The position numbers and the translations under genes are program-made. A DNA stretch of 39,370 nucleotides, taken from positions 1 to 39,370 of the IMG/VR virus record IMGVR_UViG_3300047561_000389; one strand, written 5' to 3'. Origin of the DNA: a virus (Duplodnaviria; Caudoviricetes). The notes under the pieces were generated by a model that saw nothing but the letters and a program-made list of their open reading frames with translations, ran no database searches and was not told the DNA's origin. Shown in pieces: positions 2,560 to 38,857 of the stretch (positions within the stretch are counted from its first letter, which is position 1; every line of letters begins with the position of its first letter).

Positions 2560-2848
2560 GAACAAATCACTTACGATTAGTTACGCAAGAGCACTCGGAT
2601 ACAACAAACAACAAGTCAAATGTTTGCTCACCTTATGGACCCGTGAGAGCAGGTTTGACCACCTCGCCCGACCACGAAACTTTAAGGGAAAGCCAACTAC
2701 GTCAGCTTACGGAGTTGCTCAACTCCTTGGAGAGCGTAGTAGCCAACCTGAATTACAAATCCTCCACGGTATTAGATACATTGCTCACCGCTACTCAGGG
2801 AGTGCGTGCCGCGCTCTCAACCACTCCAATAGACGCCATTGGTACTGA
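2414..2848 (+). CDS. Secreted/anchored lytic transglycosylase (lysozyme-like, SLT/Rpf-related)
   Basis: RBS AAGGAG, signal peptide MSKKALLGVLLVIVSSVLLF, catalytic-type LWTRES, SAYGVAQ and QILHGIRYIAHRY..ACRA..HWY motifs typical of actinobacterial transglycosylase domains. Confidence 0.75.
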   Translation: MSKKALLGVLLVIVSSVLLFTHGRTPSLSSIQVPEIHARTKATMEEKRENKSLTISYARALGYNKQQVKCLLTLWTRESRFDHLARPRNFKGKPTTSAYGVAQLLGERSSQPELQILHGIRYIAHRYSGSACRALNHSNRRHWY

Positions 2849-3489
2849 TGAAACTACTTGATCTTTACTCTAAAGCGGGAGGGGCGAGCAAAGGCTACGC
2901 TGACGCTGGCTTTGAGGTAGTAGGCATCGACATCAAGAAACAGAAGCGTTATCCCTTTACCTTTATACAAGCAGACTGCTTAGAGATACTGCAAGATTTA
3001 GATTACTTGCGTACCTTTGACGTGATTGCAGCTAGCCCACCCTGTCAAACACATAGTGCAACTAAGCACTTGCGTAATGCACAGGGTAAGAGCACCGATA
3101 AAGTAGATCTCATTCCACAAACAAGAGAAGCCTTAATTGCTAGCGGTGTGCCTTATGTAATCGAGAACGTTCCAGGTGCACCACTTATCAACCCAGTACA
3201 GTTCTGTGGTTCATCTTTTGGGTTAAAAGTACGCAGACATAGACTCTTTGAGTCTAGTGTGCAACTAACAGGTTCAGTATGCGATCATAAGACGCAAGGC
3301 AAACCTGTTGGTATTTATGGTTCAATGCGTGATGAGATACCTAATGGTGGACACACTGCTAAGACAATAGAACAAGCACGTGAGGCAATGGGTATTGACT
3401 GGATGATCTGGGGAGAATTAGTAGAAGCGATCCCACCTGTGTATACTCGTACTATAGGTAAACAACTAATAGATGTGTTAGGTTTCTAA
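2848..3489 (+). CDS. DNA cytosine-C5 methyltransferase (short phage type)
   Basis: Motif I variant LLDLYSKAGG, catalytic SPPCQ, ENV, and RxR (VRRHR). Start at TGATG overlap. Confidence 0.85.
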   Translation: MKLLDLYSKAGGASKGYADAGFEVVGIDIKKQKRYPFTFIQADCLEILQDLDYLRTFDVIAASPPCQTHSATKHLRNAQGKSTDKVDLIPQTREALIASGVPYVIENVPGAPLINPVQFCGSSFGLKVRRHRLFESSVQLTGSVCDHKTQGKPVGIYGSMRDEIPNGGHTAKTIEQAREAMGIDWMIWGELVEAIPPVYTRTIGKQLIDVLGF

Positions 3490-3506
3490 CCCTTTCCTAA
3501 CAAAAC

Positions 3507-3543
3507 AAAAAGCCCCTGTCGGGTAACCGGCGGGGGCTTTTTG
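3507..3543. terminator. Bidirectional rho-independent terminator between convergent operons
   Basis: AAAAA GCCCCTGTCGG-GTAA-CCGGCGGGGGC TTTTT: GC-rich stem with an A tract and a T tract. Confidence 0.85.
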
Positions 3544-3583
3544 CTAGCACTCTATCAGGCGGGATTGCCTGTAAGAGATTAAA

Positions 3584-4165
3584 TTATAGCTTGCGTAGCC
3601 AAACTTGTAAACCACTCTCTAGCAACTCATACTCACCAGCGTGTCGTTCGAGGAAGAGATCAATGCCCAGCTTGGGAGACTTGAAAGCGTGAAGGTGTAG
3701 ACCCCATTGGTAATCATCAAAGGCTAGTAGTCCTCCGGACTTTAAGTGGGGCCAAGATAGTTCAGCATCTAGTAGCGCACCAACTGCAGTGTGGTCTGCA
3801 TCTATGTAAATAAAATTAAACGGTGCTTCAATGCGGTATTTATGTGTAACGAGGAAGTCAAAGGTAGTCATACGATAGTGGTAGACGGGGTCACGATCTC
3901 TTATTCTGGTTAGATAAAACTCATACACATCATTGAATCTAATAGACTCGTGTGCATCTTCATCGCTACCTTCCCAAGTGTCAATGTCAAAGAGCCAAGT
4001 ATCTTGGTGGGTAAGGACATTATCTTGTAGCCATACTGTTGCATCGCCCGTGTACACACCAAGCTGTAAGAACCGTAGGTCGCGCTTACCTGCTAGTGGC
4101 AGGAGATACTTCTCAAAGTTAGGCTTAGCGTATGCGCTGAACCAGTCTGGAAACTTATCCACCAT
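3584..4165 (-). CDS. Class I SAM-dependent methyltransferase (Methyltransf_24-like)
   Basis: LQLGVYTG motif I, IDTW, FIYIDADH, LKSGGLLAFDDY. Confidence 0.85.
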   Translation of the reverse strand: MVDKFPDWFSAYAKPNFEKYLLPLAGKRDLRFLQLGVYTGDATVWLQDNVLTHQDTWLFDIDTWEGSDEDAHESIRFNDVYEFYLTRIRDRDPVYHYRMTTFDFLVTHKYRIEAPFNFIYIDADHTAVGALLDAELSWPHLKSGGLLAFDDYQWGLHLHAFKSPKLGIDLFLERHAGEYELLESGLQVWLRKL

Positions 4166-6175: not shown

Positions 6176-6812
6176 TACCAACCAATAACTCTTTTGTCTT
6201 ATCAGCACCGTGGGCAAGGTAATAATCATTTATATCCATACCAGGCGGAAGCGTTACGATCTGCGAGTTCAATATCTCATTCGCCACGCGCTTACTGAAC
6301 TCTGCCCCTGGGTTAGAACCATCTTCTTTAATGTCGTTATCTCCTACTATGTATACAGTCTCATAACCGCCAAAGAGTTTGGCAAAGTGAGGCTTCCACG
6401 CCTGCACTCCAGGTACACCAACAGCTGGGATACCCAGCACTCCACTAGTTATGACTGTATCTAACTCACCCTCGCACACCACAATGTATGGTGACATAAC
6501 AGTTACATCAGTAACGTTGTATAGGTGAGCCTTCTGCCCAGTAGGTGAACCATACTTGGGCTTAACATCATCTGTCCTTCTAAACTTAAAGCCTACGCAA
6601 CTACCACTGGCAGTAATGTATGGAATAGAGATCCATCCCTCGTGCATCTCGTGACCGTTGGCAGGTTCAATGACTGCGCCTAACTGGAACTGTCTGGCAA
6701 CTCGCTCAGATATCCCACGTTCGTCTAGCGCGACTAGAACTTCCGGAGTTATTTCCCGTGCGTATCGCTGCGCCGCTTCCAGTAGCGATTTCAATTGCAC
6801 GCTTGAGGCCAT
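6162..6812 (-). CDS. DNA primase, TOPRIM catalytic part
   Basis: IPY, FKFR, KY, VCEGELD, GDND..G..F, DIND motifs. Confidence 0.9.
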   Translation of the reverse strand: MASSVQLKSLLEAAQRYAREITPEVLVALDERGISERVARQFQLGAVIEPANGHEMHEGWISIPYITASGSCVGFKFRRTDDVKPKYGSPTGQKAHLYNVTDVTVMSPYIVVCEGELDTVITSGVLGIPAVGVPGVQAWKPHFAKLFGGYETVYIVGDNDIKEDGSNPGAEFSKRVANEILNSQIVTLPPGMDINDYYLAHGADKTKELLVGNAVN

Positions 6813-7854: not shown

Positions 7855-8729
7855 TGCCCTGCTGCCTCTCGCCACTCATCTATCGGTGTATAACTACCAT
7901 CGTAACCGTTACGTACATCTTTACCTAGCATTGTCCCGTACGCGTCTTTGTCAGAGATCTGACAAGCAGCATAGTTGGCTACCAAGGTTACATAATCAGA
8001 AGCATCTGCTGTGTGCTTACCAAAGCGGTTCTTCACCGCTGCGATATTAAGATCACCACTGGCTGGGTCAAAGCCTAGCGTTAGGATTAACGCTGGCAAC
8101 TGACTGACCTTACCGTGGATAGCACGTCTGGCTGGTGGTCTAGTAGGTGAACCATACTCAGACTGTTCAGAGACGTGATGCAGTACCAGTACACAGGCTT
8201 CGGTCTTGCGTGCCATATCGTGAAGCTCCATCATAATTGCACGCAAGCCTGCCCATTCATTATCTGTCTCTGCTGCTACGTTCATTAAGTTATCTATAAC
8301 AATAAGTTCTGGAGCAATGCCATAGAGTTCAACGTATGCCTTGATCTCCAACTCGATATCATCGAGTGACGGACTAGAGTCAAAGACCCACTTGATATGA
8401 GTTAACTTCTCAAAGTGTTTGTCATAGTAATGGGAGTTGTTAGATAGGTTCTGTTCAACTGTTACCTGGTTGTGACCAGATGTATGTGCAGCAGAGCGCA
8501 ACATTACTGTTGCTGTGTCGGTATCTGCTGAGAAGAACAACGTAGGTACTTTTGCTCTGATGCTGTACACCAAAGCAAACATCGACTTACCTACGTTGGG
8601 CGCAGCAGCTACCATACACACTTGCCCTCGTCGGAACTTGATCTGTTTAGGTACAAGATCTTTCCATACATCAGGTAGAGGTGTTGCTTTGGTGAGGACT
8701 GTTCCCCACGCACGCTGTAAGCTAAGCAT
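7851..8729 (-). CDS. DnaB-like (SF4) replicative helicase
   Basis: Walker A AAPNVGKS, Walker B IVIDNL, LHH, AVKNRFG motif. Confidence 0.85.
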   Translation of the reverse strand: MLSLQRAWGTVLTKATPLPDVWKDLVPKQIKFRRGQVCMVAAAPNVGKSMFALVYSIRAKVPTLFFSADTDTATVMLRSAAHTSGHNQVTVEQNLSNNSHYYDKHFEKLTHIKWVFDSSPSLDDIELEIKAYVELYGIAPELIVIDNLMNVAAETDNEWAGLRAIMMELHDMARKTEACVLVLHHVSEQSEYGSPTRPPARRAIHGKVSQLPALILTLGFDPASGDLNIAAVKNRFGKHTADASDYVTLVANYAACQISDKDAYGTMLGKDVRNGYDGSYTPIDEWREAAGQ

Positions 8730-8982
8730 TAAACTCCCCAAATGGAATAACGATACCTCGTTCTTTACGAATCCTTGTTCTCTTGCCGTGGGTTAATCCA
8801 CCCCAGACACCAAAGCGTTCGTTCTTAATTCCCCACTCAGCACACTCGGATTTGTGTACACATTTACCACACAGAGATAAAATCATAGGCATCTCTGGTG
8901 GGTACTCAGCTTCTGGTGGGTAAAATAATTCTGTGTCTATTCCCCTACAGCGTGGGTCTTCAAAGTTCCAAGGCCCTCGCAC
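8722..8982 (-). CDS. whiB: WhiB family Fe-S transcriptional regulator
   Basis: C...ELFYP...CGKCVHKSEC...FGVWGGLT: four Cys plus G[IV]WGG turn. Confidence 0.95.
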   Translation of the reverse strand: MRGPWNFEDPRCRGIDTELFYPPEAEYPPEMPMILSLCGKCVHKSECAEWGIKNERFGVWGGLTHGKRTRIRKERGIVIPFGEFNA

Positions 8983-10615: not shown

Positions 10616-11170
10616 TTATATCCTCTCCTGGATCTCTAACTGTATGGGTGGGCTGGTATTGATGTCAAGAACCGACGCGATCTTTACTGCTTTTTCTGCA
10701 GCTATCTTTGCCATCTCAGGTGTCCTGTACATTTTCTTATCCAAGCTGTACAAGAAACCCAGTGCATAGTTACCGCCTGAGCCATTGGCAAAGAGGCCAC
10801 GCTCACTAGTGTTAAAGGATAAGTCCCCGCCTATAGAGAACAGGTTGGCATCGAAGGACACAAGGAAAGCAAAGTTCATTTCCTTCTGGTCTGGTTCATA
10901 GTTATTTTCTTTGAACGCAACTGACATACTAGGCAGCAGCTTTGCACCCATAAATTTCACAGGATCTTCACCACGATACAACGGAGGTTTCCACGAATAC
11001 GCAAGGATATCTCCTGGACGTGAGTCACCAGTAAGACCTAATAGGTATTTACCTACCCAGATTATCTTGGGAGTTTCGATTGAAATGATGCGTTGATCGC
11101 CGTCAGTGATCTGCGAATCAGCTCCCATTACTACAAAGTCTGAACCTTGTACGCCTACTAGTGTTGTCAT
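10616..11170 (-). CDS. Proteasome beta-subunit/HslV-like Ntn threonine protease
   Basis: N-terminal MTT, ADSQIT, PKI (Lys33 equivalent), GLTG, ANGSGGNYALG, C-terminal D.NT. Confidence 0.85.
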   Translation of the reverse strand: MTTLVGVQGSDFVVMGADSQITDGDQRIISIETPKIIWVGKYLLGLTGDSRPGDILAYSWKPPLYRGEDPVKFMGAKLLPSMSVAFKENNYEPDQKEMNFAFLVSFDANLFSIGGDLSFNTSERGLFANGSGGNYALGFLYSLDKKMYRTPEMAKIAAEKAVKIASVLDINTSPPIQLEIQERI

Positions 11171-14777: not shown

Positions 14778-15578
14778 TTATTCTAAAAGGTTCACTAACG
14801 ATCTAGTGCGACCTTGTGATAACTGTGTGTAAATCTGAGTTGTAGCCACACTTGTGTGGCGCATAAGTTCTTTAACGGCAATCAAATCTCCGCCTGATTT
14901 TTCAAGCATTGTCGTTGCAAAGTAATGACGCAGACTGTGAAAATGCTTAGCGTCTGGTCCTAAGATGCGACGCATCTCATTGGCTGCTCTAGCTGATAAC
15001 TTATTAGGCGTTACCTGCCATAGCCTGCCAAGCGTGCTGTATGACCTAATCATATCTGAGACTATTGGTGATATTGGAACAATCAGGTCTGTGCCACCTT
15101 TGCCCTGTACTCGCAATGAGTACCCATCTTCGTGCTCTATTAGATCTGAGCCTTTGATGTTGGCTACTTCCATAGCACGAAGACCAGCTGTACCACCCAA
15201 GATAAACCAATCGTGGATCAGCTTGTTCTTGGCTTCTGCCAGCAACTTCTGGTATTCACCCTTGGTTACAGGCTTAGGTACACCGCGCCCTGGCTTGACC
15301 TGTGGCAGGCTTTCAGCAGGGTTATGACCATTGACAAGGTTCATCTTGTTCAGGGCCTTGTAGATACTCCTCAGACGGGCTACGTAAGTAGCCTTAGTAG
15401 ACTGCCTTGTGGCTTGGAGTACCACCCGTTCTAGGTCCTCATAAGAGGCTAGAGCAGGGTGGACACCCAATCGTCTAATGATCTGCATATCTTGCTTGAA
15501 CAGCTGCTCCGAGAACCCGCTAGTGCGGTATCTGTTGTGAAGCTGTTCGGCTATCTGTTCTAGTGGTATGAGTTCCAT
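14778..15578 (-). CDS. Tyrosine recombinase (XerC/D-like, no arm-binding domain)
   Basis: Catalytic set GLR, GKG, HSLRH, RH, TQIY all present; 266 aa. Confidence 0.95.
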   Translation of the reverse strand: MELIPLEQIAEQLHNRYRTSGFSEQLFKQDMQIIRRLGVHPALASYEDLERVVLQATRQSTKATYVARLRSIYKALNKMNLVNGHNPAESLPQVKPGRGVPKPVTKGEYQKLLAEAKNKLIHDWFILGGTAGLRAMEVANIKGSDLIEHEDGYSLRVQGKGGTDLIVPISPIVSDMIRSYSTLGRLWQVTPNKLSARAANEMRRILGPDAKHFHSLRHYFATTMLEKSGGDLIAVKELMRHTSVATTQIYTQLSQGRTRSLVNLLE

Positions 15579-15594
15579 ACCCTAGATGATAGCA
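15579..15594 (-). promoter_or_regulatory. Extended -10 leaderless promoter of the recombinase
   Basis: Minus strand TGC-TATCAT-N7-ATG; no SD. Confidence 0.55.
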
Positions 15595-15595
15595 C

Positions 15596-15712
15596 CTAAA
15601 TGGTGGGATTCGGTGTGGATTGTTCCGCTTTGTAATTGCAATAAGTACGTTTTGCTTGAATAAATAAAGTAAATGCAATTGCTGCAATTAAAAGATATTC
15701 ATATTTAGTCAT
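15596..15712 (-). CDS. Cassette micro-ORF, 38 aa (MTKYEYLLIAAIAFTLFIQAKRTYCNYKAEQSTPNPTI)
   Basis: Hand-translated. Purine-rich RBS AAGGTAGAG, hydrophobic helix; reads through repeat copy 1 in the same frame as the upstream gene reads through copy 2. Confidence 0.55.
   Translation of the reverse strand: MTKYEYLLIAAIAFTLFIQAKRTYCNYKAEQSTPNPTI
15611..15630. repeat. 20-bp direct repeat copy 1 (putative recombination site)
   Basis: CGGTGTGGATTGTTCCGCTT, identical to 15753-15772; internal dyad GTGGA-N4-TCCGC. Confidence 0.9.
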
Positions 15713-15716
15713 AGTT

Positions 15717-15881
15717 TTACTCTACCTTATCTATTTTAACAGCATTGATTAGCGGTGTGGATTGTTCCGCTTGTCGGCGGTCGTATTCTGCCTTCGTCAT
15801 TGACTCGGCTTTATTGTTGATTTCATCAACAATTAAAACCATTTCAACGCCATCTGTGTTTGTGTAATTTTCAAGTGTCAT
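15717..15881 (-). CDS. Small tail-fibre-associated protein (possible chaperone), 54 aa
   Basis: MTLENYTNTDG...SMTKAEYDRRQAEQSTP...; starts immediately after the fibre stop codon. Confidence 0.7.
   Translation of the reverse strand: MTLENYTNTDGVEMVLIVDEINNKAESMTKAEYDRRQAEQSTPLINAVKIDKVE
15753..15772. repeat. 20-bp direct repeat copy 2 (putative recombination site)
   Basis: CGGTGTGGATTGTTCCGCTT, identical to 15611-15630; encodes AEQSTP on the minus strand. Confidence 0.9.
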
Positions 15882-15882
15882 T

Positions 15883-17157
15883 TTATAACTCCGCAACGAA
15901 TCCGAGATAAGCATTATTTGTGGCATTTGCCCCTGCGACTCCACCTTGACCAACTACCAAACCAAGAGCAGTTGTGTATTTGATTAAACAAGATTCCCAG
16001 CCCGAATTATCAAGAACAGGAACCGCACTATTTGTCGAAACAGTGTTACCAGTCAAAATACGATAATCAGCAGCGGTACCACTTGTTTCAAGAGAAGTAG
16101 GATTTACTCTCATTGTTACTGGTAACTTTATAGTTCCGAAAGCAATGGTTGTAGAATAAACAAAAACACTTTGGATGTAAGAGTTAGCGTTACCACCTGT
16201 TGTCCAACGATAGTAATACCTCTGACAAGCGGCTAATTCTCCTTGAAATGTTGCCCCAGCGCGTGAGAATTGTGTGGCAATAGCACCAACCTCAATCTGT
16301 ACGCCAGTTACTTCAAAGTAATCATTTGCCCCAGCAGTGCCAGTTGGTGAGTAAGCAAAATAAGGCGTGAATTCTGTGACAGTTGAACCTAATGTAATTG
16401 TGCTTTGAAACCGTTGCCAAGTAGTTGTCAAAGTGACATTTGTGTCAATGGGTGTTGCTTGTCCAGCATAAGCAACAAATGGGTTCTGGTCTGTACCAGT
16501 ACCAGTAAATAATGCTGCGCGCATTAAATTAGATGTTGCAGAAAAATTAGCACCTGCGCGTGCATAATAGGAAAAGGTAATAGTTTTGCCAACATACGGA
16601 ATTGTGTTAGTAGTTTCGATTGGTGAACCAATGTCGGTTGTGGTCGTACTTGTAGAACCTGAATTCCGTTGCACTCTTGCGCAGTATTGAACAAATGGCA
16701 GATTGGTTGTGTCGCCTGTTACTTGTCGGCTAATTGTTCGCGCTGACATTGTTCCGCCAAACCAGCGGTCAGCGGTATAAACACTTCCTGTTGTAAATGA
16801 AGTACCGCGTTGCCAAATGTCAAAACCGCCATTGACAACTGCGTTTTTGCCAGCAGCCATTGAACCTTGATAGCGCAAACCTGTTGAGGTGGAAGAATCT
16901 GCTACAAGAGTTTCGCCATTGTTGCCTACTGCTAGGCGGTCATTGGTAGTTGAGTAGGTATAGAGATCACCCTTGGTTGTAAGAGGTGACAGATTAGCTG
17001 CATAAGCTAATGCTGTCCAGGCTGTAGAACCTGTACCTATCTTGAATTTATTGGTATCGCTCTCAAACCCGATTTCACCAGCAGCCAATGTTGGGTTGGT
17101 GGAAGTCCAGGTTGCAGCAGTACCACGTCTTGTCTGAATCTGTGTCTGTACAGCCAT
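15883..17157 (-). CDS. Tail fibre / receptor-binding protein (Mtd-N-like anchor plus carbohydrate-binding-like C-terminus)
   Basis: IQTRRGTAATW...GEIGFESDT.KFKIG.G..W anchor; TTKGDL..RLAVG linker; N..NGGFDIWQRG, GVQIEVG and ELAACQRYY motifs. Confidence 0.8.
   Translation of the reverse strand: MAVQTQIQTRRGTAATWTSTNPTLAAGEIGFESDTNKFKIGTGSTAWTALAYAANLSPLTTKGDLYTYSTTNDRLAVGNNGETLVADSSTSTGLRYQGSMAAGKNAVVNGGFDIWQRGTSFTTGSVYTADRWFGGTMSARTISRQVTGDTTNLPFVQYCARVQRNSGSTSTTTTDIGSPIETTNTIPYVGKTITFSYYARAGANFSATSNLMRAALFTGTGTDQNPFVAYAGQATPIDTNVTLTTTWQRFQSTITLGSTVTEFTPYFAYSPTGTAGANDYFEVTGVQIEVGAIATQFSRAGATFQGELAACQRYYYRWTTGGNANSYIQSVFVYSTTIAFGTIKLPVTMRVNPTSLETSGTAADYRILTGNTVSTNSAVPVLDNSGWESCLIKYTTALGLVVGQGGVAGANATNNAYLGFVAEL
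16889..16903. other. Third putative recombinase site with a different core, inside the tail fibre gene
   Basis: GTGGA-AGAA-TCTGCT versus GTGGA-TTGT-TCCGCT in the repeats; lies at the VADSST linker just before the distal domain. Confidence 0.5.
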
Positions 17158-17593: not shown

Positions 17594-18496
17594 TTATTTG
17601 GTGTAGTGAACGCGGATCGGGAAGCGGTCTTGTAACTTAACTGACTCTTCTTGCAGACGTTGCTGGTAAAGAGCAAAGATATATTTAGAAGCAGAAGCAC
17701 CAGCAGTTGAAGGCAACTTAGTATCTGCTAGATCTGCTTCGGCGCTGGATAGGTTGATGCGACCTGTATCAATGTAAGACAGGAGTCTGTATGCAGCTCC
17801 AAGAGTAACGACATCTCTTGACGATTCTGGTAGGCCTGTAACAGTAGCAAAGTCATCACTGTTGTTAGTGAGGTTATTTGGGATAATGGAATAATAGACT
17901 TGGACCGTACGACCAGGGACAATCTTGTCATAGATATTCACCGTCTTAGTAGTGTTGAACGCAGATACATTTGCCATACGGTCAATGCGCCAACGATTAG
18001 TTGGTAGCCATTCCCTTGATGGTCCAGGTGTTTGCCAAGAAATAAACAATACGTCTCTAGTGTCATCTGGTAATGGGTAAGCAATCTGTGCTGCGTTGTA
18101 CTGGAATGTTGTAACTGCTACGCCAAACAACTTTGGATACAGTGAGTTGATCGTATCGTTGAGTGCTTGTCGAATCATTGTTACTGGGAAAGTTGGAGTT
18201 AAAATTACCTGAGCAAGTTCTGCGTGTGGGCTTGGTGTAGTTCCCATATAACCACGACCAAAGCCTGGGGCTACGTTAAGTGTAAGGTTTTGCTTATCAA
18301 AGGAGTTAACCCAAATAAGTTCGTTATCAATCTGGACGATACCTTTAGCAAGGTTATCTGCTGAACCGATCTTGATGGTCAGCGCAGTAGCTGAGATGCC
18401 GCCTGTTGAGGCAAGCCAAGTAATGCGGTCTTGACGAAGTGTGTAACCCTGTAGGTTACTTTGGACTTCGCTTACTAGTTGTCCCAGATTTGGCAT
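17594..18496 (-). CDS. Tail tubular A / head-tail adaptor-like protein
   Basis: 300 aa, QALNDTI...YPLP.D pattern with an inserted IDNELI..RG.GT..H domain; position in the tail module. Confidence 0.6.
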   Translation of the reverse strand: MPNLGQLVSEVQSNLQGYTLRQDRITWLASTGGISATALTIKIGSADNLAKGIVQIDNELIWVNSFDKQNLTLNVAPGFGRGYMGTTPSPHAELAQVILTPTFPVTMIRQALNDTINSLYPKLFGVAVTTFQYNAAQIAYPLPDDTRDVLFISWQTPGPSREWLPTNRWRIDRMANVSAFNTTKTVNIYDKIVPGRTVQVYYSIIPNNLTNNSDDFATVTGLPESSRDVVTLGAAYRLLSYIDTGRINLSSAEADLADTKLPSTAGASASKYIFALYQQRLQEESVKLQDRFPIRVHYTK

Positions 18497-19538
18497 CTAT
18501 TTTGCTCCTGTAGAACGTTACGTTGGTTTGTAATCTTTCATCATCAGGCGATATTTCTAACGCTTTGATTCCGTGCTCAAGTGCAGTTGGGTAATCACCC
18601 AGTTGCCAACTTGATACTGCTATTAGATCGTGAGCCATATGAGTCCACGCCCAGTTCTCCGATAAGAAGCCCATAGGTCTTTCGTTGAACTCCAGTGCCT
18701 TCTTAGCCACAAGCAAGCACTCAGGCCATTGTTGTGTTTTGTAATAATGATGAGCAAGTCCTAATACAGATTCACGGTTAGCGTGTTCTTCTGTACCTTT
18801 GATTAACCACTCTTCTGCCATATTAGGTTCGCAAAAAGATAATGTTCTGCAGGCTGCACTGCGTTCTTCTGGAAAGACTGAGATAGTCAAGTATGCTTTA
18901 AGCATCTTGGCTGCTTCATCAAATCTTTTGTAATAAAAGTATTCTCTACCTAAGTAGTAAGAGTTGCGAGCATCAGGGTTTTCTTTAACTGCCATCTCTA
19001 GCATCTCTAAGTACTGTGCTCTGGACTTAGCTTTATCTTGGCGGTGATGGATTTCTAATCCTGATACTTCGCCTTTGATTTCTTCACGCTCTGAGTCCCA
19101 GTGTGGCACTTCGTGGATAGGATACTTCCACCGTACATCTTTGCGTCTATGAATCTTAAACCCATTAAATTCTAGGTTTGCACTGCCATCTTCATTGAAA
19201 GCCTCAATGCGACGATAATGTGGTCTATCAATACTAGGGTCAATCTTCTCTAGGGCTTCTCGCCAACCAGGAGTTAACTCTTCATCCATATCCAAAGCGA
19301 TGCAGTAATCTACATCAGCTGGTAGTAATGCTAGCGATGCGTTCCGAGCATCGTCGAATCTAAATGGCGAAACAAATATCTCGTAAACCGTAATGCCAAG
19401 ACTTCGTGCAATCTCAATGGTTCTATCTGTTGATCCTGTATCTGCAATGAGGAGATAGTCTGCGTCTTTACAAGACTCATACCATCGTTCAACGTGTTTC
19501 TCCTCGTTTAATGCAATCGTGTATACGGCTATCTTCAT
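18456..19538 (-). CDS. GT2-family glycosyltransferase with TPR repeats
   Basis: IALNEE, DTGSTD, FDDARN, LDMDE (DxD), IHE, then YYLGREY TPR-like helices. Confidence 0.9.
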   Translation of the reverse strand: MKIAVYTIALNEEKHVERWYESCKDADYLLIADTGSTDRTIEIARSLGITVYEIFVSPFRFDDARNASLALLPADVDYCIALDMDEELTPGWREALEKIDPSIDRPHYRRIEAFNEDGSANLEFNGFKIHRRKDVRWKYPIHEVPHWDSEREEIKGEVSGLEIHHRQDKAKSRAQYLEMLEMAVKENPDARNSYYLGREYFYYKRFDEAAKMLKAYLTISVFPEERSAACRTLSFCEPNMAEEWLIKGTEEHANRESVLGLAHHYYKTQQWPECLLVAKKALEFNERPMGFLSENWAWTHMAHDLIAVSSWQLGDYPTALEHGIKALEISPDDERLQTNVTFYRSKIDAKSGTTSKRSPK

Positions 19539-20113
19539 TTGTACCAACTCATATAATCAACATCTTCTAACATCAGATCTGAGTAACTTGGATACTGCTT
19601 AACCATTGGTGGCTTTGCAGCATATGATCTGTACTGGCGATGTAACAATCTATAAGCAACATCTATATGCTCTGGGTAATCTCTACCTTGTTCTAGTGCA
19701 ATCTCCTTGAACTCAGGATTTACACAGTAAGCGTGTAGTGATGATGTATCCATTGCTCTAACCATTATGTCGTTGCAACGCTCACTGTTAAGTAGCACTG
19801 CGCCTAGATAAAAGATGTGCCAGTCTTTAGGTAGTAGTTCAATGAACTCAGTAAAGCGTTCATTAAAGCCTTCCATAAAGTAAGCATCATCTTCTAGGAT
19901 GAGCGTCTTACCTACTGAATCTTCTAGCACTCGGATGTGGCTTTGTTTACAAGCCTGTATTGGATCTATGCCCAATTCCTTAGCATCTATTGCGCTAAAT
20001 CTTTCATAGGTAATACCCAGCTCTTGTAACTGGGCATCAACCTTTTCTAGTCTATCTTTCCTGCGGTCTAGGTTTATCACCACGACCTTATCAAAGTATT
20101 CATTAACCTTCAT
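19535..20113 (-). CDS. GT25-family glycosyltransferase
   Basis: VINLDRRKDR, RFSAID, CKQSH, LILEDD, HAY, ID motifs. Confidence 0.9.
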   Translation of the reverse strand: MKVNEYFDKVVVINLDRRKDRLEKVDAQLQELGITYERFSAIDAKELGIDPIQACKQSHIRVLEDSVGKTLILEDDAYFMEGFNERFTEFIELLPKDWHIFYLGAVLLNSERCNDIMVRAMDTSSLHAYCVNPEFKEIALEQGRDYPEHIDVAYRLLHRQYRSYAAKPPMVKQYPSYSDLMLEDVDYMSWYK

Positions 20114-20125
20114 AGGCTTAGCCTA

Positions 20126-21644
<1,519 letters not shown>

Positions 21645-36997: not shown

Positions 36998-38857
36998 TTA
37001 GATGAATGTCTTATTTTTTTCTGCCAACATCTCATCGATGTTAACAACAACTCTTTTTCCCATTTCAGCGCGGGATAAGAAAGGGTTCTTTAAGTGGTGG
37101 GTTGCGTACTTACCGTAGTTGAGCATTTCACGCGCTCTGATTTCACAGAACCACAATGCCATCACCATATCGGTCTTACCCTTAGTAGTTGGCGTCCAGG
37201 TTACAAGCTGTTCAATCAGAGACTTAACGTTTTCTGTTTGGTCACTAGGTAAATGGATTAAGTTATCTCTATGGTGCTTACCATCTGCTTGCTTAGTTCC
37301 AAACAGTGTTGCCATAGATGCCACACCGAAACCGGTATCCCACTTGTTGGAACCAGTATGGTGCTCACGCAAGATAACACCACGTGTTGCTAGGTGCTGA
37401 CGGATACCTTCATCTTGAGTTAAGAAAGCCTGGAAAGCGTTCTTCTCAATGATCCACTCGGACGGTCCGTAAAGGGAAGTCCAGTTAATAATAATGTCGC
37501 GGATCTGCTGAGGCGACGGTCTGGTAATTTTCATAACATCTACTATGTAGCGTTTAGATGTAGCACGATCAATTGCATAACAAACAGCGGCGGTATCGCC
37601 CACAATTGCTGGGTCCATACCGCAGATATAAGTAAAGCCGTTCAAATCTTTTGGATGTCCAGGAAAGCCTGTCTCAAGTCTGCCGGACTTACGCATACCG
37701 TCAATAGATCCACGAACACATACTGGATCAAAGGCTGCGTTTTCAGATACGTCCTGTTGCTGGTAGATCAAAGCCCAGGTACTAGTATCCATAGCTTGAC
37801 GTTCGTTATATAAGTTACGACCAGACCAACGTGGGTATAGGCCGTCCTCGTCCTGCTCGTTTACTTCTTGTCCATCAAAGGGAGCATCGGACTTAGGCCA
37901 CAATGTAACCCACTTGTCAGGGTCCTCATTTGGTTCAAGTAGTGCTGGCATAGCAAGATAGGTCCAAGGGACCAAGCCACCTGGGTATCTATCTTCTTGG
38001 CGTAGCTCGCGGTATAGATCCACCGAAGCTACACGGGTACCAATAATAATTAACTTACCAGTAGGGTTAAGACGAGAACGCACGTCCTGGGTCAACCACT
38101 TGATCTGTCGTTCAAAGTCATTAGCGTTAGACATTGTCACGGCGTCGTCTACAATAATCATATCGGCACGCTTACCGTAGATTTGACCGCCAATACCCAC
38201 GGCCTCGATGTTTGGGTCCTTTTCACTGGACTCACGAAGCTCATCACCAAAGGTGACACGGGTTGCTTGCCAAGAAGCGGTCTTAGAGTTAAACCCTACG
38301 CCAGCAGCATAAGCACTTTGGAGGTCTGCATACATAGGATGCGTTAGTCTTTGCTTGATGGCGTAGAGAAAGTCGGCTGCTAGGCGCTGGGTCTGGGACA
38401 CAATTAGAACACGGAAGTTGGGATTACGGGCTACCTGCCAGGTAACGTAGTCAACTGTAATAGTCATTGACTTGGCGTGGTTAGGCGGAATGTTTACAAG
38501 GATGCGGTTATTAGCCACACCCTTTTCAAACTTCATACTGGGATGGTTCCAGCTTGGCTCTCTACCTTCAATAACATCTACTATGTTCATCTGGTGTGGA
38601 AAGGTCCGGCTGTGGAGGAACCGCTGACGGAACTCCTGGAATGAGATGTCGTGGACATCCCCACCCTGGAATTGCTTGTCCTTCAAACCCAAACGGGTTC
38701 GGTCAATCTTGTCTGCAAAAACTTTATCGGTACGACGGTAATACTCATAAGTCTTCATAGACTTACCAGCTGAGCCGCAAGCGGCGTCAATGGTCATACC
38801 TTCTGCCACGCATCCTAAGATGATGCGCTTGGCAATATCTGCTGAGTTCTCAGCCAC
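36998..38857 (-). CDS. terL: Terminase large subunit with an N-terminal HTH-like extension
   Basis: Walker A variant IPPNHAKS, G.RAD.IIVDD Walker B, IGTR, YQQ, GMDPA nuclease motif, D.VMALW; GTG start after AGGAG. Confidence 0.9.
   Translation of the reverse strand: MAENSADIAKRIILGCVAEGMTIDAACGSAGKSMKTYEYYRRTDKVFADKIDRTRLGLKDKQFQGGDVHDISFQEFRQRFLHSRTFPHQMNIVDVIEGREPSWNHPSMKFEKGVANNRILVNIPPNHAKSMTITVDYVTWQVARNPNFRVLIVSQTQRLAADFLYAIKQRLTHPMYADLQSAYAAGVGFNSKTASWQATRVTFGDELRESSEKDPNIEAVGIGGQIYGKRADMIIVDDAVTMSNANDFERQIKWLTQDVRSRLNPTGKLIIIGTRVASVDLYRELRQEDRYPGGLVPWTYLAMPALLEPNEDPDKWVTLWPKSDAPFDGQEVNEQDEDGLYPRWSGRNLYNERQAMDTSTWALIYQQQDVSENAAFDPVCVRGSIDGMRKSGRLETGFPGHPKDLNGFTYICGMDPAIVGDTAAVCYAIDRATSKRYIVDVMKITRPSPQQIRDIIINWTSLYGPSEWIIEKNAFQAFLTQDEGIRQHLATRGVILREHHTGSNKWDTGFGVASMATLFGTKQADGKHHRDNLIHLPSDQTENVKSLIEQLVTWTPTTKGKTDMVMALWFCEIRAREMLNYGKYATHHLKNPFLSRAEMGKRVVVNIDEMLAEKNKTFI

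Follow-up and report, generated by a model that had tools for sequence, protein, structure and literature searches.

A 142-bp unit with a micro-gene of 38 codons, ordinary in appearance, seems to expose an undescribed, population-wide site for cassette insertion and module exchange in freshwater phages. We consider it probable that a recombinase drives the insertion of units and the exchange of genome arms at this site, which would then be a conserved joint for adding, dropping and swapping genes. The window, by which we mean the whole stretch of DNA analysed, is an IMG/VR record of 39,370 bases that is 98% complete. Its minus strand encodes, in order, a tail fibre, a 54-aa gene, the 142-bp unit with its 38-aa ORF, a tyrosine recombinase and a 725-aa protein. 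The features that matter here are these:

15883-17157, minus strand: tail fibre gene, 424 aa, Mtd_N and phrog_4492 (Pfam and PHROG matches)
16228-16254, minus strand: part of the fibre gene constrained as DNA, at the boundary with the variable tip that follows (the GTIQGELAA codons in relatives)
15717-15881, minus strand: 54-aa gene behind the tail fibre, with no family match
15753-15772, minus strand: upstream copy of the site, at the 3' end of the 54-aa gene, read as AEQSTP
15631-15752, minus strand: 122-bp AT-rich body of the unit, comprising the in-frame tail and stop of the upstream gene, a predicted promoter and the first 28 codons of the micro-gene
15719-15724, minus strand: TAnnnT, 6 bases before the cassette ATG, the predicted -10 box of a leaderless promoter
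15596-15712, minus strand: 38-aa ORF with one hydrophobic N-terminal stretch (residues ~4-20)
15611-15630, minus strand: downstream copy of the site, inside the last codons of the cassette ORF and ~50 bases ahead of the recombinase start
15586-15591, minus strand: TAnnnT, 7 bases before the recombinase ATG, a predicted leaderless promoter
14778-15578, minus strand: armless tyrosine recombinase, 266 aa, PF00589, catalytic motifs intact
8722-8982: WhiB gene

The window also codes for a sigma-70 region 4 protein, glycosyltransferases, capsid, terminase and a Cas4/PD-(D/E)XK nuclease. Among 50,697 GenBank phage records, its terminase is nearest (47%) to those of the cultured Planktophila phages E7 and F5, which hold matches for 14 of the 23 window proteins tried, at 27-59% identity. 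From these matches we infer that the host is a freshwater actinobacterium such as Ca. Nanopelagicales, the host context of Planktophila phages (PMC10202952). E7 and F5 themselves lack the site (at up to 4 mismatches), the fibre and the recombinase, a point against a recombinase-driven system. A proteasome-subunit-like protein (10616-11170, minus strand; PF00227, E 1.7e-07) occurs in cultured Planktophila phages too. Positions 2839-4165 and 18456-21307 encode methyltransferases, two glycosyltransferases and a collagen-repeat protein, classes of protein reported for related actinophages. Going by position, one might guess at a fibre chaperone role for the 54-aa gene.

The two direct 20-bp repeats that bound the unit are perfect and spaced 142 bases apart. 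The inner 122 bp contain 31 G+C (25.4%) and are indeed more AT-rich than their flanks, as a sequence-only reading of this DNA had proposed; of all 122-base stretches in the window, the one with the least GC (24.6%) begins at 15629. None of 100 whole-window shuffles contained a 20-mer direct repeat of any kind. At up to three mismatches, the 20-mer matches the window at these two copies only, and no shuffle of 100 gave two matches. The site is an imperfect dyad, G(C/T)GG-6 bases-CCAC, and a matrix scan of the whole window returned only the two strong sites, both direct. As had been read from the letters, the unit gives the 54-aa gene a new stop, the gene ending AEQSTP-LINAVKIDKVE*; the 38-aa ORF crosses the second repeat to end KAEQSTP-NPTI*; and removing one unit computationally leaves the gene end QAEQSTPNPTI*. 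The two crossings had been placed in the same frame, which holds relative to the repeat and not otherwise, because 142 is not divisible by 3. Weak site-like matches at 8691-8707, just past the whiB gene, and at 38593-38609 (both minus strand) score 15.5 and 15.2 bits against 27.4 for the true sites and may be chance. Four further pairs of exact direct repeats, of 16-17 bases, lie at 6540/8142, 15939/31444, 18089/28934 and 37533/38571.

One contig in each of runs X1 and X2 spans the whole unit with no differing letters (depth 19.1 and 46.6). Both runs derive from one sample, possibly the source of the window's DNA, which leaves a little room for an artefact of assembly, one of the outcomes that the sequence-only reading had named as its own refutation. 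Depth is even over the unit, and no joint skipping it is listed in four runs, with three joints not displayed and rare variants dropped by contigs. The peptide recurs in three further records with one substitution and other tails, and eleven other loci have the same layout with other contents. We regard an assembly artefact as practically out of the question. In run X3, the recombinase start and the site (at 2 differences) are preceded by 214 different letters. A search of viral contigs with a 24-base pattern gave 0 other DNA copies of this unit, and a pattern of the site plus this leader type found one viral contig, that of locus L132.

The site is widespread. Its exact 19-mer occurs at at least 120 loci in IMG/VR, and we estimate ~470 viral stretches. 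In these contexts a small gene carries the site at its 3' end. These small genes fall into two or more unlike kinds, and many different genes follow downstream; a fibre motif is found 393-740 bases upstream in 100 of 127 deduplicated loci. The recombinase lies directly downstream in 9 of 120 site-bearing loci within the flank fetched, a count in which 40 loci had 300-base flanks only and contigs were fragmentary, so that the gene may be elsewhere in others. The reverse search, by recombinase, kept 80 of 224 loci, 74 of them with enough upstream DNA. Here the 20-mer was present upstream at up to three mismatches in 56 of 74 and exactly in 35, mostly ~50 bases from the recombinase start, and more distant recombinases (69-77%) adjoin related yet different sites. 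Identical recombinases adjoin different core variants, and divergent sites pair with divergent proteins; co-evolution of site and recombinase was dropped as an explanation, since kinship and linkage account for the pairing.

Codon usage indicates that the site is conserved at the DNA level, with rare codons fixed. In 52 of 58 unique contexts (up to six mismatches), picked by the recombinase and not by the site, the codons were GCG in 42 of 44 for Ala, GAA in 46 of 46, TCC in 42 of 42 for Ser, ACA in 52 of 52 and CCG in 51 of 51; in ten window genes, these same codons make up 5, 68, 7, 40 and 4%, respectively. Codons just upstream of the site vary freely, and variants within it alter the residue. 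Site positions 13-19 never differ, although the invariant core amounts to only ~12 bases and central mismatches are tolerated. Conservation of the right part may come through linkage to the recombinase; the left part is found with unlike upstream genes. Neither copy of the site (z-scores -0.45 to -1.41) nor the unit (0.02) folds beyond shuffles, and there was no match in Rfam, from which an attC model may be absent.

These codons bear on a different explanation, in which AEQSTP is a conserved C-terminal peptide signal and the repeat a duplicated gene end. It would suit the frame kept in 11 of the 14 units described below, but is largely refuted by a pattern in which rare codons are fixed and amino acids vary. 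Some genes also stop short of the site (L134, L182, L007 and L295), and the same 11 bases appear in the fibre gene in another frame. We give a peptide signal very little credence.

Empty sites are the norm, since a second strong site within 700 bases turned up in only 3 of 166 unique loci. Eight more loci came from targeted scans, whose matches were mostly unrelated repeats: two-site scans yielded family members in 6 of 116 metagenome loci (four by fibre match, L221 and L295 by eye) and in 2 of 9, 0 of 20 and 1 of 10 viral loci, the last being L007 again. For viral contigs, coverage of unit sizes of ~135-180 bp came from an exact pattern alone, which reached 156 bp, and the scans extended to ~300 bp at most. 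Including the window, the total is 14 units in 12 loci, 130-361 bp long with a GC of 0.27-0.48. Other cassettes and multiple cassettes, which the earlier reading had suggested seeking, are thus found in eleven other loci with two-site units, two of them (L295 and L327) three-site arrays; degenerate arrays were seen by eye in L191 and L200. The AT richness and hydrophobicity that drew attention to the window's unit do not generalize, given this GC range and the many Cys-rich ORFs.

That the site gains and loses tiny genes is supported by relatives that are empty, with a single site, or filled otherwise. The exact empty allele of this phage was not found among 125 usable loci, none of the fetched loci matching the window's upstream 100 bases at 70% or more, and no circle of the unit was seen in the contigs of the four runs. 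The lack of an exact empty allele, a unit-skipping joint or a circle among contigs tells against the recombinase.

Units share a layout: a short in-frame tail closes the upstream gene, followed by a start and a small ORF. In 11 of 14 units the ORF stays in frame across the lower site; the remaining three have a short ORF that reopens this frame. At single-site loci, an in-frame stop falls within 12 codons of the Pro in 119 of 120, and the other two frames have a stop within 20 codons in 76 and 99 loci. The next gene starts 1-26 bases ahead of the in-frame stop in 91 of 119. The frame is presumably kept so that translation stays coupled to the next gene.

Contents and leaders appear to reassort. 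L221 and L234 have an ORF that is the same but for one base, and L132 and L325 have homologous ORFs, in each case with different leaders and on different backbones; a second junction near the ATG would seem to be used too. Unit borders that are not fixed in this way, with the same ORF behind a different leader, count against recombination by an enzyme at the site. Translations reveal that homologous ORFs reach the site at different lengths (L295/L327, L221/L327 and L191/L007), which suggests that ORFs are captured or trimmed at site-like sequences. One ORF of L295 is homologous to the second L327 unit and shorter, breaking off mid-gene at the site, which hints at the way units originate.

Sequence similarity between phages switches exactly at the site. 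Across 127 loci, the two largest piles of alignment starts were 20-base bins at the site (270 and 82 starts, from 83 loci), over a background with a median bin of 0 and a 95th percentile of 12. At the site, the right 100 bases but not the left were common to 111 of 7,503 locus pairs, compared with 0-1 at ten shifted anchors. The opposite, left but not right, held for only 1 pair, or 20 pairs with 40-base flanks. This asymmetry is to be expected because fibre tips are seldom common to two phages, and it weakens the ancestry-switch test; locus pairs are moreover not independent events, and L001-L080 were chosen by the site itself. A recombinase finds little help in a pile so lopsided, which comes just where a hypervariable region ends and similarity would return in any case. 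Of the pairs that share the right flank, 61 of 118 differ in the central 7 bases, as do 8 of the 20 that share the left; as to crossover position, the central variants follow neither flank clearly. These central mismatches are the main difficulty for the recombinase reading, as a homology-dependent tyrosine recombinase tolerates them poorly. By this evidence the site would be mainly a population-wide joint for whole-module exchange, at which inserts are rare; the sequence-only reading had recognized an insertion site and missed this scale. In L121-L200, two bins at the recombinase stop, ~800 bases past the site, collect 126 and 78 alignment ends. The recombinase there is common to backbones with different downstream genes, and no site was seen at its 3' end.

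The fibre gene contains a candidate second recombination site, which together with the first would bracket the tip and the small gene as an exchangeable module. Over its nine codons one codon dominates each position, for example GCC in 98 of 103, TTA in 96 of 108 and GGA in 76 of 83, whereas at the conserved Cys, Arg and Tyr residues next to it the synonymous codons occur in roughly equal shares (108 unique contexts). In the family consensus, 11 bases of this stretch recur in the site, where they are read in a different frame, and the far end of the stretch is similar to the left arm of the site on the opposite strand. Twenty alignment ends fall within 40 bases after it. In this window, the 5' part of the stretch has diverged.

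The recombinase is most similar, among solved sequences, to 5VFZ Gp33 (E 1.7e-17), a match covering residues 14-258, so that an arm-binding domain would not fit. Each of 47 relatives, out of 47, keeps the five catalytic motifs intact. The protein falls below the cut-offs for XerC, XerD and IntI: TIGR02249 (IntI) gives 51.5 bits against a cut-off of 265, limited to residues 213-255 (the C-terminal 43), and the 2A3V match is likewise limited to residues 213-254. The family comprises 251 clusters at E 1e-40 or better, with 0 members at E 1e-40 in 401 genomes, a sample of one actinobacterial class in which the inclusion of Nanopelagicales is uncertain. The gene itself is apparently mobile, because it precedes many different genes and is missing from some like backbones (L221). 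Where it is absent before a gene of the 725-aa type (L221, L260, L099 and L071), a short non-coding stretch with an apparent inverted repeat stands in its place.

Could this be a Brujita-type integrase with the site as its attP for the host chromosome, units and arm swaps being promiscuous by-products? Its nearest solved relative is 5VFZ Gp33, its best GenBank phage matches are actinophage integrases (30-36% identity), and the site adjoins the recombinase gene, as attP usually does. Homologous ORFs ending at the site at different lengths are also what pseudo-site capture would produce. Yet the exact 17-mer has 86 matches in GTDB genomes, near the ~70 expected by chance on our own arithmetic, and no record title among the 86 names Nanopelagicales, though a shorter shared core would escape such a search. 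Integration would also split the late-gene operon between the fibre and the lysin or tail genes, the site is kept in phages with no adjacent recombinase gene, and the 49 ORFs scanned against Pfam include no repressor. An attP function of this kind is improbable in our view.

Expression of the cassette had been ascribed to an RBS, which is doubtful: AAGG lies 12 bases ahead of the cassette ATG, and a TAnnnT hexamer 6 bases ahead. Of the 14 units, 7 have TAnnnT 6-7 bases upstream of the ATG, compared with 12 of 692 background ATGs on the window's minus strand, and the hexamer precedes the recombinase ATG in all 54 unique recombinase contexts. A leaderless promoter is more likely than an RBS as the cassette's signal, and units seem to carry leaderless promoters of their own. 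In mycobacteria, leaderless genes with a -10 hexamer directly upstream are common (PMC4633059). In this window a promoter scan read the right arm of the site as a -35 box followed by a 17-base spacer, at no more than chance frequency; promoter and terminator matches at the site are at chance level, and no terminator stem-loop signal exceeds shuffles. The right arm lies 10, 17 or 21-22 bases from TAnnnT and is therefore not a fixed -35 box.

Such signals are what one would look for if the site were a conserved linker or regulatory element, its units moving by short-patch homologous recombination and the recombinase incidental or a passenger unit. The recombinase is visible in only 9 of 120 site-bearing loci, a difficulty for our preferred reading, and the 111 that lack it in the flank fetched fit a linker well. 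So do the recombinase's own unit-like layout (site, leader, leaderless ATG, then many different genes), the phage-encoded Cas4/PD-(D/E)XK nuclease and, at chance frequency only, the scan of the right arm as a -35 box. Mini-circles are reported to arise from PeSL-type elements with no dedicated recombinase (PMC2839356). On the other side, a ~12-base core with central mismatches is short for homologous exchange, the spacing to TAnnnT varies, terminator stem-loops are missing beyond shuffles, and a related site adjoins recombinases down to 69% identity. We think a linker moved by homology alone rather unlikely.

We thus favour the recombinase, while acknowledging that, besides the difficulties above, the dyad of the site is imperfect. 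An armless tyrosine recombinase would join two simple double-stranded sites with no directionality. A small one-site circle would integrate to give site-unit-site; two direct copies of the site would allow the unit to be excised again; and crossover at the site between co-infecting phages would swap genome arms. Site-bearing phages with no adjacent recombinase would be served in trans. Each gene would enter the site in a single frame and be closed by a stop in the sequence beyond it, a frame rule that would leave undisturbed the overlap with the following gene, which by our reading is often a lysin. The sequence-only reading of a captured site-specific cassette survives in part: an optional small-gene unit, a conserved recombination-type site and an adjoining tyrosine recombinase are present, and the system is not an integron.

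A broader picture is more tentative, and we hold it as possible without expecting it. A recombinase borne by a minority of phages may act in trans, letting freshwater actinophages share one population-wide joint. It may capture 5' gene pieces at site-like sequences, stack self-expressing in-frame cassettes and, with the second site in the fibre gene, swap receptor-binding tips and arms. Such a system would be an integron analogue with double-stranded, mismatch-tolerant sites and neither IntI nor attC.

The peptide of the window's unit is predicted to be a single-pass membrane peptide with its own leaderless promoter (Kyte-Doolittle mean up to 2.15 in a 15-residue window). It has no Pfam or NCBIfam match and no usable Atlas match, and phmmer against 1.84 billion representatives gave one real relative; a second match, P0122 (648 aa, matched in 11 stretches), was taken as hydrophobic noise. 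The peptide's cluster has four members, the window's and three others with one substitution, identical through AEQSTP and followed by four different tails, one of which is the tail of 6 single-site loci. The micro-gene has, it appears, been joined at the site to four different right flanks. Three of the copies are known as protein sequence only, so that transfer of the unit as a circle is not proven by this; exchange of an arm at the lower site would be enough to account for the tails, which weighs against the recombinase reading. Superinfection exclusion, proposed earlier, finds one hydrophobic stretch and a non-significant PHROG match (E 0.092) in its favour. An effect on the host envelope is a best guess only, and envelope action is probably not the theme of the system, because most other unit ORFs are not hydrophobic.

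The earlier reading called the arrangement an integron-like array. It works like an integron cassette system but is not an integron, having neither IntI nor attC. Integrons, with IntI, attI and attC gene cassettes, are found in phages too (PMC9892861). As in integrons, a tyrosine recombinase lies beside the site, small single-gene units accumulate in one orientation, stop codons are supplied at the site, and sites occur without the recombinase as well. Unlike them, the recombinase here stays far below the IntI cut-off and matches over its last 43 residues only; there is one short kind of site, with both copies the same 20-mer and no attC hairpin signal; units seem to carry their own predicted promoter, whereas integron cassettes are promoterless and read from Pc; the recombinase is co-oriented and downstream; and arrays are rare and short.

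In Bifidobacterium prophages, the Rin shufflon flips stored fibre tips by means of inverted 11-bp sites (PMC6109161). It resembles our system in having an armless Xer-like recombinase beside a receptor-binding gene, with one site within the fibre gene and one after it. Unlike in Rin, every strong site here is direct, stored tips were not observed and unrelated micro-genes make up the cargo; genes here appear to be exchanged between genomes, whereas Rin works within one. A matrix scan of 166 unique loci found no strong inverted site within 700 bases, and weak ones (13-16 bits) in 5.

The PeSL cassettes of the T4-type phages RB49 and phi1 are promoter-terminator elements, many per genome, for which homologous recombination has been proposed and no dedicated recombinase found (PMC2839356). 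In these phages, small orphan genes with their own promoter come and go between conserved direct repeats in a linker-guided modular exchange, much as here. The present system differs in having one short in-frame coding site per genome and an adjacent recombinase, and in that promoter and terminator matches are at chance and its fold is not beyond shuffles. The pdif modules of Acinetobacter plasmids use host dif-like sites and host XerC/XerD (PMC9455709). They share with our system a simple tyrosine-recombinase site common to many replicons, cointegration, movement of accessory modules and an enzyme in trans; the candidate enzyme here is instead encoded by the phage and does not reach the XerC or the XerD cut-off.

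Brujita-type simple integrases of actinophages (PMC8138268) are armless two-domain tyrosine recombinases and include the nearest solved relative. Identity is ~31%, however, and Brujita integrates at a host site, whereas no host copy of the 17-mer was found here in GTDB and the gene sits among tail and lysis genes. We take 5VFZ to be the Brujita enzyme, which fits the gp33 label of the GenBank match. In the literature outside subscription journals, we found no description of this site or system, nor any paper with the motif.

The 38-aa peptide is the least interesting part of this system until a function is shown for it. The wider interest lies in an old question, whether mosaicism comes from targeted linkers or from random illegitimate joins filtered by selection (PMC2839356). 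For these phages one can point to a specific short site, to a candidate enzyme and to natural substrates in empty, filled and arrayed form, which makes the linker model directly testable. A small armless recombinase that accepts mismatched cores, as this one putatively does, would also be of interest as a tool. If our reading is true, phages gain and swap genes in an integron-like way. Since the phages are related to those that infect Ca. Nanopelagicales, a group of bacteria abundant in freshwater and their probable hosts, such a system could influence how host ranges turn over in lakes.
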